DNA of 64,000 bases from a candidate division KSB3 bacterium (GTDB lineage: Bacteria > Moduliflexota > Moduliflexia > Moduliflexales > Moduliflexaceae). The translations under genes and the position numbers were made by a program. The notes beneath the pieces are model-generated. The model was not told the origin of the DNA. It ran no database searches and saw nothing but the letters and a program-made list of their open reading frames with translations. Position 1 is the first letter of the stretch; the number at the start of each line of letters is the position of its first letter. The stretch lies in contig PDSJ01000025.1 in NCBI GenBank assembly GCA_002748425.1, forward strand, positions 22,605 through 86,604. The letters run 5' to 3'. Shown here one piece after another: positions 44,182-61,544 of the stretch.

Positions 44182-44907
44182 ATGAGAAAAACGTTGTGCC
44201 GGCATGGATTGCTGGTATTATTGCTTTGGGGAGGGCCTGCGTTTATCGGCGCAGCTTTCGCTGAGTTGAGCGTCACGCTTGAAATCGACCCCAATATAAG
44301 GGTTCTTGAGCTGAATACGTCATTTGCTGAAATGCTGGTGACAGCGCGACCCAGTGATCCGAATGTCAGCTACGACTGGACGCTGGACGGACCAGGGGAA
44401 TTGAAGTTTCCCGGTGACGATGAGAATAGTGCTGGGGCGATGTATCGCCCGCCATCGTCGATACAGGGACAGGCCGCCCAGATCGCTCTCGCGGTTGAAA
44501 TCACGAATGATGCCGGTAAGACTGCGAAAGCTGAGATCACTTTAACGCTGACTCCGCCTGTTGCGCCGACGCCGACGCCGACGCCGACGCCAACACCAAC
44601 GCCTGTGCCGATCGAAATTCGTGGTCTCCTCTTGAGAGACGAGCAGGAAACGATTATGCATCCTGCTTATGAGAGCAGCGCCGGCGAAATTCTGACCATC
44701 GAAGTCGATCTGCTCAGCCCGAACAATCGGACGGTTTCCCTCGACTGTTGGGCCATTCGAGGAACAACCAACGTGTTGCAGAATCGTATCAAATATGTGA
44801 CGCCGAATCTGCCGGGACGAAAAGATATGTTGACCGTCAAAGCAGTTGATGAGGCGACTGGGAAAGCTATTATTCAAAGGGTGATCAAGATTTATATCAG
44901 AGACTAA
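44182..44907 (+). CDS. Secreted protein: GPG-domain, PT linker, domain Y
   Basis: Perfect SD (AAGGAGG) and signal peptide MRKTLCRHGLLVLLLWGGPAFIGAAFA. Motifs SYDWTLDGPGEL…YRPPSS and the linker APTPTPTPTPTPTP. The ORF is open from 44026, overlapping the previous gene. Confidence 0.6.
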   Translation: MRKTLCRHGLLVLLLWGGPAFIGAAFAELSVTLEIDPNIRVLELNTSFAEMLVTARPSDPNVSYDWTLDGPGELKFPGDDENSAGAMYRPPSSIQGQAAQIALAVEITNDAGKTAKAEITLTLTPPVAPTPTPTPTPTPTPVPIEIRGLLLRDEQETIMHPAYESSAGEILTIEVDLLSPNNRTVSLDCWAIRGTTNVLQNRIKYVTPNLPGRKDMLTVKAVDEATGKAIIQRVIKIYIRD

Positions 44908-44934
44908 ATACAATTAAGGAACAGGAGGATGATC

Positions 44935-46107
44935 ATGAAAAAATATCTGATAACTATGGTAGTGATCGTGGCGTGTATCATGGGAGCTTCTTCTGCCGTA
45001 TGGGCTTCGGCCATGGCGGAATTAATCGAGCATATCGGAGTCGCAAAAATTGTGAGTATGGAGATCAGGCCTCTCTATCGCGTGACTGAGGAAACGCTGG
45101 CCTGGCTTAAAGCGGAGAACGTTCCAGAACAAATTTGTCTAAATCCTCAGTTGCTGAGTCTCAAAGATCAGACATACGATGGACGCGACGCGTTTCTGAG
45201 TGCTTTAGAACGTGCCCTGGACAGTGCTGATCTTGACCAGGAGATCGAAGGTGACACGGTTAGAATCTTGCTCCTGCGCTATGCCAGACAGCGTCCCTCC
45301 GAGAGGCATTCCGGTATTCTGGATGTCGCGATCGATATCAGCAACAGCAACGACCGCGACATCAAATTAACCGAATCGCTTTTCGACTTCTCATTGCGCG
45401 ATGAAGAAGCGATGGGTGGAATGATTCAACTGGGAAAAGACGTTGTCTATCGCAATACAGACATTGATCTGCCAGCGAACCCTGAGCATGATCCGGAAAA
45501 GGTTACGCGGGTCGTCTTTTCTATTGAATTGCAGGATGAGAGGAAGTCCTCATTCGATCCCCTTGTACACCTGCTGAACTTCAGCGGCAATCCCGCGCAG
45601 GACGATTACTTGTTTGTCAATGCGCGCTTTACTCTGGGTATGAAGTCGAGTAAAGGCTGGACCTATGGTGAAGCCATTCGCGTGGAGTGGATGTTCTGTC
45701 CGGACATGCAGAATCAATTACCGTTACAAGAATGCTTTATCGAGCTTCCTCCTCCGGCACCTGATTTTCCGGGAACGGTTTCCAGCCCGCTTTCGATCGC
45801 CTGTGACAATCTGGTTAAGGCCGGAAGAAACATCATTAAAAAACGCACGGATTATTATATCGCAGATCTCGGGGAAACGGCCGGAACCTTTCACCTTGAT
45901 TTTGAGACCTATACTGAACCGGACCAGATCCTCGTTGAGTACGAAGGAAAAGTGTTGTATGATACCGGCTGCGTCGGGGCTTCCGGCTCTGAAACGATCG
46001 CGTATTCCGGTACAACGTCATCAATGAAAGTTAGTGTCACTTCTCGTTGCCGCCGCGTCGGTCCATCGGTTACTGATTGGGATTTCAAACTGAGCTGCCC
46101 GGAATAG
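44935..46107 (+). CDS. Secreted WHy/LEA_2-like domain protein with C-terminal extension (paralogue 4)
   Basis: Signal peptide. SNSNDRDIKLTESLFDFSL and KGWTYGEAIRVEWMFCP closely parallel the 39456 CDS. Confidence 0.6.
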   Translation: MKKYLITMVVIVACIMGASSAVWASAMAELIEHIGVAKIVSMEIRPLYRVTEETLAWLKAENVPEQICLNPQLLSLKDQTYDGRDAFLSALERALDSADLDQEIEGDTVRILLLRYARQRPSERHSGILDVAIDISNSNDRDIKLTESLFDFSLRDEEAMGGMIQLGKDVVYRNTDIDLPANPEHDPEKVTRVVFSIELQDERKSSFDPLVHLLNFSGNPAQDDYLFVNARFTLGMKSSKGWTYGEAIRVEWMFCPDMQNQLPLQECFIELPPPAPDFPGTVSSPLSIACDNLVKAGRNIIKKRTDYYIADLGETAGTFHLDFETYTEPDQILVEYEGKVLYDTGCVGASGSETIAYSGTTSSMKVSVTSRCRRVGPSVTDWDFKLSCPE

Positions 46108-60544: not shown

Positions 60545-60545
60545 T

Positions 60546-61544
60546 ATGCACCGAATGAAGACAACAAGAGCTCAAACATTGAACATAACGTGCTTCTGCC
60601 TTTTGACCGCACTTGTCTGCAATGTGAATTCTGTGCATGCGCAAGATATTTTGCTGGAGATTGAGGTGGAACCAAACCTCCGAACGCTGCGACTCGACGG
60701 AAAGATGCAAGACATTTCTCTGGTCGCTCAGAGCACTCGACAAGATCTCGCGTTTAAATGGACATTGCAGGGGCCGGGTAACCTTTTAGGGGATGATGAA
60801 AGTCCCGGAATTTTTTATCTGCCACCGAAAACACTCGATGCCGGGATGCCGTCGCAAGCCAGCGTTGTCTTGAACGTCCATGACGATCGAGGCAGCCAGG
60901 CCAGCAAAAAAATTATTTTCCAGTTGCTCAATGCTCCAGAACCGTTATCACCTTCCGAAGCGGAAGAGCCTCCCCCCACGCCTGACAGATTATCCCCTTC
61001 TCACTCCACTCCGCTGGTATTTCATATCAGCTGTCGGTATCATCCGTCTCATGAAAAAACATTTCGTCCCATAAACGAGGGAAGCGTTCTCCACTCCGGC
61101 GATCATTATCGCATTGTCTTTACCCCGCAACAAGACGCATACGTCTATATTTACCAGATCGACGACAGCGGACTGGTCTTTCAACTTTTTCCGATGGATC
61201 GTTTTAGGGGAAGGCCAGTGAATAATTTCAATCCGGTACAAGCCGGGAGGGACTATTATGCGCCGGGCAAAGAAATGTCTTTTGTACTGGATGAACTGAC
61301 TGGAACCGAACGCATATATTTTCTTGCATCCCGCAAACAAAACCGTTTTTTAGAAGAACGTTACGAGCAACTGCAAAAGGAGCCACCATCGCAACAGGAG
61401 GCCCTGTTTCATGAGCTTCTGCGACAGGTGATGGACCAGCACGGCATCGAATATACGAAACCCCACGATTTTGACGCCATACAGGATAGTCTGGAGAGTT
61501 TATGTCAAGGTTGTGTGTACACGTTATCGTTCGAGCATAGATAA
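60546..61544 (+). CDS. Secreted GPG-domain protein with C-terminal DUF4384-like beta domain (tentative)
   Basis: Signal peptide. GPG motif AFKWTLQGPGNL…FYLPPKT. The C-terminal GDHYRIVFTPQQDAYVYIYQIDDSGLVFQLFP…PGKEMSFVL pattern resembles DUF4384. The ORF is open from 60489, overlapping the previous gene. Confidence 0.5.
   Translation: MHRMKTTRAQTLNITCFCLLTALVCNVNSVHAQDILLEIEVEPNLRTLRLDGKMQDISLVAQSTRQDLAFKWTLQGPGNLLGDDESPGIFYLPPKTLDAGMPSQASVVLNVHDDRGSQASKKIIFQLLNAPEPLSPSEAEEPPPTPDRLSPSHSTPLVFHISCRYHPSHEKTFRPINEGSVLHSGDHYRIVFTPQQDAYVYIYQIDDSGLVFQLFPMDRFRGRPVNNFNPVQAGRDYYAPGKEMSFVLDELTGTERIYFLASRKQNRFLEERYEQLQKEPPSQQEALFHELLRQVMDQHGIEYTKPHDFDAIQDSLESLCQGCVYTLSFEHR

Follow-up and report, generated by a model that had tools for sequence, protein, structure and literature searches.

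Small beta-sandwich domains of the PKD and bacterial immunoglobulin (Ig)-like type are usually met as repeats: PKD domains (Pfam families PF22352, PF00801 and PF18911) form internal tandem arrays, and Big_9 domains (PF17963) typically make up long repeat arrays in giant adhesins. Modular secreted enzymes join a carbohydrate-binding module through a linker to a catalytic domain, and use dockerin and cohesin modules for scaffolding. The effector-associated domains (EADs) of nucleoside triphosphate (NTP)-dependent conflict systems sit on several differently armed proteins of a locus, and neighbouring genes carry copies that are more closely related to one another than to any others (Kaur et al. 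2020, PMC7159879). Here we analyse a 64,000-nucleotide stretch of DNA from a candidate division KSB3 bacterium (assembly GCA_002748425.1, contig PDSJ01000025.1, positions 22,605 to 86,604), referred to below as the window, in which a recurrent domain, X, begins several secreted proteins and is joined in each to a different C-terminal partner. We find that X is a new family within a known superfamily, lying below curated thresholds and obeying a positional rule of its own.

This arrangement resembles that of modular enzymes in that a constant small beta-sandwich is followed by a flexible, often Pro/Thr-rich linker and interchangeable domains, with several genes per locus. Unlike modular enzymes, X has no carbohydrate-active enzymes among its partners, and no scaffold with repeated receptor modules was identified. 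A partial likeness to EADs (PMC7159879) lies in the presence of X on several differently armed proteins per locus, four of them in the window, in its occasional fusion to a core NTPase, of which the window has no case, in the same effector vocabulary (caspase, FGS, TPR and vWA) and in multicellular or filamentous hosts. Unlike EADs, however, X is extracytoplasmic and all-beta, and its adjacent copies are not closest relatives. A regular-expression search and six-frame scans with a profile hidden Markov model (HMM) located five copies of X in the window, and no more, spread over the products of four coding sequences (CDSs) that are exported by the Sec route; their coordinates are as follows.

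44182..44907, + strand: CDS A (241 aa), with a signal peptide, X, a Pro/Thr linker and Y; hydrophobic segment at aa 9-27
44260..44568, + strand: X copy 1 (SYDWTLDGPGEL … YRPP) of CDS A; domain E 2.2e-26
44656..44892, + strand: Y domain of CDS A, a second, more divergent PKD-like beta domain; Y HMM E 1.3e-19
46198..47589, + strand: CDS B (463 aa, = PID58510.1/PIE29012.1), with a signal peptide, X, a linker, X and an FGE-sulfatase (lectin-like) domain
46282..46581, + strand: X copy 2 (SYRWTYTGPGTL … YRPE) of CDS B; domain E 7.8e-25, with a weak Big_9 match at E 0.003-0.004
46645..46944, + strand: X copy 3 (EFEWTLNGPGAL … YILPE) of CDS B; domain E 6e-25, internal and away from the signal peptide
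56453..57868, + strand: CDS C (471 aa, = PID58503.1), with a signal peptide, X, a linker, a pseudo-caspase and a C-terminal module of ~50 aa
56537..56833, + strand: X copy 4 (EFLWELDGPGSF … YLPP) of CDS C; domain E 1.2e-32
60546..61544, + strand: CDS D (332 aa, = PID58501.1/PIE29021.1), with a signal peptide, X, a linker and DUF4384
60642..60944, + strand: X copy 5 (AFKWTLQGPGNL … YLPP) of CDS D; domain E 6.6e-28

All five copies carry the motif W-x-[LY]-x-G-P-G and a downstream Tyr, and elsewhere in the six frames the motif scan gave unrelated partial matches only. Nine alignment columns are invariant (P12, A30, W41, G45, P46, G47, Y63, G87 and L98). The copies are 22-32% identical in pairwise alignments over ~100 residues, and BLASTP comparisons of one window copy with another gave E values of 1e-9 to 1e-15. 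We then scored the window with an HMM of 102 homologous X domains from which the window's own proteins had been left out. This profile found the five copies at domain E values of 7.8e-25 to 1.2e-32, and the best non-X open reading frame (ORF) among the 601 in the window reached only E 1.5, so the similarity of the five copies is not due to chance. HMM scans revealed no further hidden copies in the window at E<1. These results uphold the count of five copies in four secreted proteins given in a preliminary description of this DNA, although the domain is closer to 100 than to 90 residues long. The placement of every copy directly after a signal peptide, also proposed there, holds for four of the five; the second copy of CDS B is internal (aa ~150-250) and forms a tandem unit with the first. 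Likewise, the 'YxPP' part of the signature is strict in three copies, the other two reading YRPE and YILPE. The proteins of the window are identical to entries of two near-identical KSB3 metagenome-assembled genomes (locus tags CSB45 and CSA57; GCA_002747525.1): CDS B has an exact match at NCBI assigned to candidate division KSB3, and a gene called on GCA_002747525.1 coincides exactly with CDS D. The (PT)n linker of CDS A is encoded by a 6-bp repeat at 44564-44603.

To follow X beyond the window, we ran an exhaustive HMMER profile search against 1.84 billion cluster representatives, which matched 1036 of them at E<=1e-3 and 301 at E<=1e-10. Domain, motif, position and partner counts were taken from the best 150 matches, 98 of which contain a full-length X, with 106 domains altogether. 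In 94 of these 98 proteins X is N-terminal, with a start at about residue 27 in 88-94 of the 98, and a hydrophobic leader precedes it in 85 of 88. The pattern W-x-hydrophobic-x-G-x-G is present in 95 of the 106 domains, GPG in 87 and [YF]-x-[PA]-P in 80. The mature N terminus is most often 'QP' after the cleavage-site Ala (AQP in 32 of 88 proteins), and the stretch downstream of X is enriched in Pro and Thr, with a median combined fraction of 0.23 versus a background of 0.15 and a value of at least 0.4 in 26 of 96 cases. These data show that X-bearing proteins have Sec-type signal peptides and that the mature protein starts at the first strand of X, on the extracytoplasmic side. Two exported proteins of the same locus that lack X (49846 and 61581 CDSs) likewise have a Gln after the probable cleavage site; an N-terminal Gln of this kind resembles the pyroglutamate 'Q-rule' of Bacteroidetes.

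The exhaustive search was needed because word indexes are too coarse for this family: word-indexed searches gave 0 matches with the 5-copy alignment and 3 with the 80-sequence one. Profile scans of genome contigs gave no confirmed relative, and these scans also missed the source genome; a metagenome scan for X found one locus only. The taxonomic spread of X, sampled via cluster names and contig look-ups only, covers KSB3/Moduliflexota genomes and many metagenome contigs, so the family is not private to this genome. Among the homologues looked up, GAK50388.1 of Ca. Moduliflexus flocculans (L011 10001-10834) is an X-family exported protein, and most of the others come from metagenome contigs only. 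The GenBank label of GAK50388.1, 'probable ATP-dependent RNA helicase DDX59-like', looks spurious. KSB3 filaments cause bulking in anaerobic reactors. The phylum is filamentous and is reported to be diderm (PMC4312070).

AlphaFold2, given an alignment of the five window copies alone, modelled X as an all-beta sandwich of eight strands (mean pLDDT 88.9, pTM 0.78). The top Foldseek matches of this model in the PDB were the AAVR/KIAA0319L PKD domain, a nectin-like Ig domain, intimin, Rib and the ColG PKD domain, at TM-scores of 0.57-0.63. Both results bear out the Ig-like fold that had been suggested from strand patterns. Four of the five window copies have no Pfam match at E<=10 and copy 2 has only the weak one to Big_9, and none of the NCBIfam models matches the X domain itself. 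The family consensus scores 20.9 bits against Big_9 (cutoff 23.6), aligning to model positions 54-89 only, and 17.2 bits against K319L-like_PKD (PF22352; cutoff 27) in an alignment that spans nearly the whole model; Big_9 is the best direct Pfam match, with E 1e-4 to 1e-2 in 14 of the 98 members. X thus stays below the gathering thresholds of PF22352, PF00801, PF18911 and PF17963. Searching PDB sequences with profiles of 5 and of 80 sequences gave insignificant per-domain matches only (TLP-IPT, IgG Fc and ColG PKD).

Profile-profile comparison links X to PKD repeats. The exhaustive search also brought up 52 giant multi-repeat proteins, and most of the ten that we scanned with Pfam carry K319L-like_PKD, Big_9 and PKD_4 arrays. 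An hhalign comparison of the 106 X domains with 150 K319L-like PKD repeats, taken from proteins with Pfam K319L-like_PKD matches (E down to 1e-109) but retrieved with the X profile itself, gave a probability of 97.5% and E 7e-12 over 67 columns. The consensus of X reads AQPxVxLxxDPDIRTIxxG…FxWxLxGPGxLxGDxTSPGIxYIPP…AxITVTVTDxxG…VTFTL. Like the PKD domains, X is an Ig-like beta-sandwich of ~85-100 aa, and it appears to share with them a conserved Trp and a Gly-rich turn, followed by a '…Y.P…' strand and a '…TVTVtD..G…' strand pair. The signature of PKD domains is the 'WDFGDG' turn. In the hhalign alignment the W-x-[LIV]-x-G-P-G of X falls on the 'W…G' of the PKD repeats, although spacing and residues differ; on our reading of the sequence, W…GPG seems to correspond to this turn. 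What sets X apart from PKD domains is its own signature (W-x-L-x-GPG, GD-x-TSPG, Y-x-PP and an N-terminal AQP…DPD) and its occurrence as one or two copies at the mature N terminus rather than in internal tandem arrays. With Big_9 it shares the C-terminal half ('Y.P … T.TVtD..G … V.I.V'), but the match involves mainly the last 40-50 residues and never reaches 23.6 bits, and Big_9 domains typically occur in arrays of a kind that X does not form. These analyses show that X is a distinct, divergent subfamily, not covered by existing models, within the PKD-like/bacterial Ig-like beta-sandwich superfamily. The domain therefore deserves the word 'unnamed' in the sense that it reaches no curated Pfam or NCBIfam model, but its fold is no orphan, as the hhalign match makes plain; assignment to a known family goes part of the way, and the GPG motif, far from being restricted to this genome, is clearly conserved elsewhere.

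The copies within the window are old. In BLASTP comparisons they are 37-51% identical to copies in other organisms but only 25-35% identical among themselves, and several of the closest outside copies share the architecture of their window counterpart (P0038 and P0094 for CDS C; P0003 for the second copy of CDS B). With the nearest copy lying in another organism in every case, we regard the window copies as ancient paralogues that travel with their cargo, and this age rules out recent duplication, shuffling or homogenisation within the locus. Between orthologues, identity is 34-46% for X, 54-55% for the FGE-sulfatase domain and 34-35% for the pseudo-caspase, so X is no better conserved than its cargo.

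Pfam, NCBIfam and Y HMM matches confirmed the fusion partners proposed for the window, namely domain Y, FGE-sulfatase (CDS B; Pfam E 1.7e-16), pseudo-caspase and DUF4384 (CDS D; Pfam E 3.1e-13). Across the family the partner types are those of the window: Pfam found C-terminal FGE-sulfatase in 7 of the 98 X proteins, TPR in 7, DUF4384 in 5, PEGA in 4, Lcl_C in 3 and Peptidase_C14 in 2, with single cases of PG_binding_1, LysM, SH3b and NlpC/P60, and ~19 proteins have an X-linker-Y architecture. The preliminary description had likened X to a common N-terminal targeting or binding module of this locus, a putative role; the constant N terminus and variable partners do hold outside this genome (94/98), but X is not confined to the locus. 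Two proteins depart from the usual layout. P0084 (L013 262-3297) is a single-pass membrane protein in which an nSTAND1 NTPase, a transmembrane (TM) helix, a coiled coil and X follow one another, and P0085 has the order EAD8-TM-X-X-TM. In both, X lies outside the membrane and is joined to a cytoplasmic nSTAND1 or EAD8, which are cytoplasmic conflict-system modules (PMC7159879, PMC8195603).

Domain Y is related to X. When its profile was iterated, X and generic PKD repeats had entered it by round 3-4; we therefore counted Y from round 2 only and took the drift as a hint of homology, which we then checked with hhalign. This gave probabilities of 96.6% for Y against PKD repeats and 74.6% for X against Y, whereas the AlphaFold model of Y had a pLDDT of 68.9 and uninformative fold matches. 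On these profile comparisons, Y is a PKD-like relative assigned to the same superfamily as X. A weak NCBIfam match of CDS A to an anammox S-layer glycoprotein falls on its Pro/Thr linker and was dismissed as low-complexity.

The caspase-like module of CDS C matches NCBIfam caspase_w_EACC1 at E 2.4e-16, under the cutoff of that model, and CDS C is paralogous to the 57923 CDS (E 1e-53). In the alignment, both the 56453 and the 57923 CDSs have a Tyr in the place of the catalytic His and no Cys at the aligned site. The His-to-Tyr change matches a published pseudo-orthocaspase pattern (PMC6426788), and these residues mark the two products as pseudo-orthocaspases. By contrast, both the catalytic His and the Cys are kept in the 61581 CDS, which carries NHL repeats and whose caspase is apparently active. 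The products of 56453-57868 and 57923-60544 also have in common a C-terminal module of ~50 aa (IIEIYRHGDISAAQFKKAL…IF), with weak EF-hand-like Pfam matches.

The X genes lie in a co-directional 17-gene locus of ~27 kb (36899-63593), referred to here as the island. Its order is two OmpA genes, a 269-aa exported protein, an ABC-G-like transporter, a TM-anchored Y protein (TM-Y), X-Y, a 392-aa exported protein and X-X-FGE, followed by exported proteins of 691, 814 and 474 aa, an ABC ATPase and an FtsX/MacB-like permease, and then by X-pseudo-caspase, the large pseudo-caspase, X-DUF4384 and caspase-NHL. CDS D thus sits between the large pseudo-caspase and caspase-NHL genes. The genes without X are listed here, with the loci used for comparison named after a 10-Mb ENA contig (L010), a Logan contig (L014), a microbial-mat contig (L015) and Ca. 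Moduliflexus flocculans (L011).

36899..40265, + strand: two OmpA-family proteins and the 269-aa exported protein, at the start of the island; Pfam OmpA, with same-order orthologues in L014 and L011
40329..43253, + strand: ABC-G-like transporter (ATPase and ABC-2 membrane domain); Pfam ABC_tran and ABC2_membrane
43275..44093, + strand: TM-Y gene, with a cytoplasmic N terminus, TM helix at aa 87-105, Pro/Thr linker and Y (43848-44075); Y HMM E 4.9e-16
44929..46107, + strand: exported 392-aa framework protein; no Pfam or NCBIfam match, 40-52% identical orthologues in L011 and L014
47649..53771, + strand: three exported framework proteins (691, 814 and 474 aa); in synteny and 39-61% identical in L010, L014 and L015
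53774..56328, + strand: ABC ATPase and 4-TM FtsX/MacB-like permease with a periplasmic loop of ~400 aa, at aa ~83-485 of the 54472 CDS; ABC_tran E 4.8e-24, FtsX E 0.0058
57923..63593, + strand: X-less genes for the large pseudo-caspase (873 aa) and the caspase with an NHL propeller (670 aa); Pfam/NCBIfam

The island is syntenic in at least three metagenome contigs (L010, L014 and L015), at 30-74% protein identity, and in L011 for its first part only. Its framework genes are constant, and the X genes in equivalent slots bear different heads. The ABC-G-like transporter, which has 44-59% identical orthologues at the same position in L011 and L014, is the conserved upstream neighbour of the TM-Y/X-Y pair, and TM-Y orthologues adjoin X genes in both of these loci. 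An X-bearing gene directly follows the permease in the window, L010 and L015, and L014 ends inside the permease gene; the head at this position is a pseudo-caspase in the window and L010 and a TPR domain in L015. The X genes of L014 encode X-Y, X-Y, X-PEGA-Lcl_C and X-FGE with a single X, and the X-less downstream island genes have a 74% identical orthologue in L010. In loci unrelated to the island, too, X genes come in groups: L007 has three side by side, and L003 and L012 have two each. In L012 an X-X-Y gene and an X gene come right after an nSTAND1 gene, and a CHAT gene lies two genes further along. The 17-gene locus looks like an envelope system that has yet to be described.

Several smaller features of the island deserve mention. 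The 47649-49724 CDS contains a 42-bp tandem repeat (48533-48887; 8.5 copies, 92% match) that encodes an (A/T)-(T/P)-rich linker. The products of 49846-52290 and 52347-53771 are paralogous (E 4e-71), the 474-aa protein lacking ~320 central residues of the 814-aa one, and a 'VLFLIDGTKSM' stretch within this insert of the 814-aa protein looks by eye like a vWA metal-ion-dependent adhesion site, although Pfam gives no match. A motif just after the signal peptide, ELI[DE]H..[IV].KIVS[VM]E[VI]RP, is common to the products of 39456-40265 and 44929-46107 and suggests another shared module of the island. The stretch 'QEY..FL..[FY]P', seen by eye in both the cytoplasmic tail of the ABC-G-like transporter (40329-43253) and the cytoplasmic head of TM-Y (43275-44093), could be a coupling element between the two. 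In L014, the X genes of the syntenic island are interrupted at 11181-11892 by a HicA-toxin gene and a pair of small ORFs. In L010, an insertion sequence (IS) element (15627-17971; DUF772 and DDE_Tnp_1_2) lies immediately upstream of a DUF4384 orthologue without X, and its insertion may have removed the domain.

The architecture and synteny lead us to favour, tentatively and somewhat short of calling it probable, the idea that X is a constant docking or tethering handle that attaches variable heads to a common envelope partner. Placed at the mature N terminus and often followed by a Pro/Thr-rich linker, X would hold onto one cell-envelope partner a range of sensor or effector heads, comprising Y, lectin-like FGE-sulfatase, TPR, DUF4384, PEGA, Lcl_C, peptidoglycan-binding or -cleaving modules and caspases or pseudo-caspases. 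The partner is probably encoded in the conserved island, where TM-Y, the FtsX/MacB-like permease with its periplasmic loop, an OmpA-like protein or a further X or Y would be candidates. Even where X is not N-terminal it stays outside the membrane, as in the nSTAND1-TM-coiled coil-X and EAD8-TM-X-X proteins. A number of observations weigh against this idea. A handle for one invariant partner might be expected to be under more constraint than its cargo, and X, being no more conserved than the cargo between orthologues, is not. Co-encoded copies that are 22-32% identical are a poor fit to one shared binding site. X can be dispensable, being absent from the L010 DUF4384 orthologue, and its number varies, the X-FGE protein of L014 having one copy against two in the window. 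The conserved W, GPG, Y and P are plausibly determinants of the fold rather than a binding surface, and no ABC or FtsX genes lie near X at the off-island loci L003, L006, L007 and L012.

Some of these same observations would fit a domain that binds nothing in particular, a generic Ig-like spacer that holds the C-terminal domain off the membrane or wall. X is homologous to PKD and Big_9 repeats, which are often spacers in giant adhesins; its conserved residues look like core and turn residues; it evolves as fast as its cargo or faster; and it varies in copy number or is lost, as in the L010 DUF4384 orthologue. Spacer Ig domains, however, usually form tandem arrays at variable positions, whereas X is single or occasionally double and sits at the mature N terminus in 94 of 98 proteins. 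It is also a sequence clade with its own signature, apart from generic repeats, the Pro/Thr linker already provides spacing, and X genes cluster with one another and with Y genes. On balance we consider a mere spacer rather unlikely. A sorting signal, standing at the N terminus as the Ig-like domain of type IX secretion substrates stands at the C terminus, by which an envelope machine such as the MacB/FtsX-like ABC system of the island would move periplasmic proteins to the surface, would explain why X comes immediately after the signal peptide with a conserved mature start ('AQP' in 32 of 88), why an X gene directly follows the ABC ATPase/FtsX-like permease in three genomes and why an ABC-G-like exporter lies upstream of the TM-Y/X-Y pair in three genomes. 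Second or internal copies and TM-anchored X proteins are hard to reconcile with such a signal, as are off-island X loci without any transporter and the absence of a cleavage motif between X and cargo. The Ig-like sorting domain of type IX secretion is C-terminal, unlike X, and we know of no description of a folded N-terminal domain that serves as such a signal; this explanation seems very improbable.

A more far-reaching proposal is that X is an extracytoplasmic adaptor comparable to EADs, in which X-X or X-Y contacts would join periplasmic heads (pseudo-caspase, FGE/lectin, DUF4384 or TPR) to membrane transducers (nSTAND1-TM-X, EAD8-TM-X, TM-Y or the FtsX/MacB-like ABC system). The partner vocabulary (FGE-sulfatase/'FGS', caspase, TPR, vWA, nSTAND1, EAD8, CHAT and trypsin) fits published conflict systems (PMC7159879, PMC8195603), and the host phylum is filamentous, as noted above (PMC4312070). 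Two proteins link a cytoplasmic nSTAND1 or EAD8 through a TM helix to an external X, the nSTAND1 gene of L012 adjoins X-X-Y and X genes with CHAT close by, and TM-Y has X-Y as its neighbour in both the window and L014, and in L011 has an X protein beside it. The rule that adjacent copies are closest relatives nevertheless fails, the window copies being nearer to those of other organisms, and X is a beta-sandwich and not a helical death-like domain. The scanned island genes gave no sign of a MoxR ATPase, and an NTPase is missing from the surroundings of most X loci. PADLOC defence models match nothing except a generic caspase, and a known defence system was rejected on that ground. We therefore hold an EAD-like adaptor to be improbable. 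Similarly doubtful is its fullest form, in which X and Y would be the coupling domain of an undescribed envelope-spanning system of filamentous KSB3/Moduliflexota, the extracytoplasmic equivalent of the EADs of bacterial conflict and cell-death systems. The ~27-kb locus would then supply anchors of the OmpA type, an ABC-G-like exporter, an ABC mechanotransducer of the MacB/FtsX type and a Y protein fixed in the membrane, and interchangeable periplasmic heads (lectin-like FGE, pseudo-caspase, DUF4384, TPR and PEGA/Lcl_C) would plug into this machinery through X and sometimes be wired directly to cytoplasmic STAND NTPases, as in nSTAND1-TM-X.

As a family, X lends itself well to an entry of its own in the PKD/E-set clan, and such an entry would annotate hundreds of exported proteins now called 'hypothetical'. 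It also marks a conserved, wholly uncharacterised KSB3 envelope locus in which two ABC systems occur together with caspase-like, lectin-like and other heads, and it would gain further interest if the island proves to be a new envelope system coupled through X. If X is indeed a docking handle, it would offer an entry into how uncultured filamentous bacteria arrange the proteins of a shared envelope, and could show whether caspase, FGE and TPR 'conflict' modules act outside the cytoplasm.

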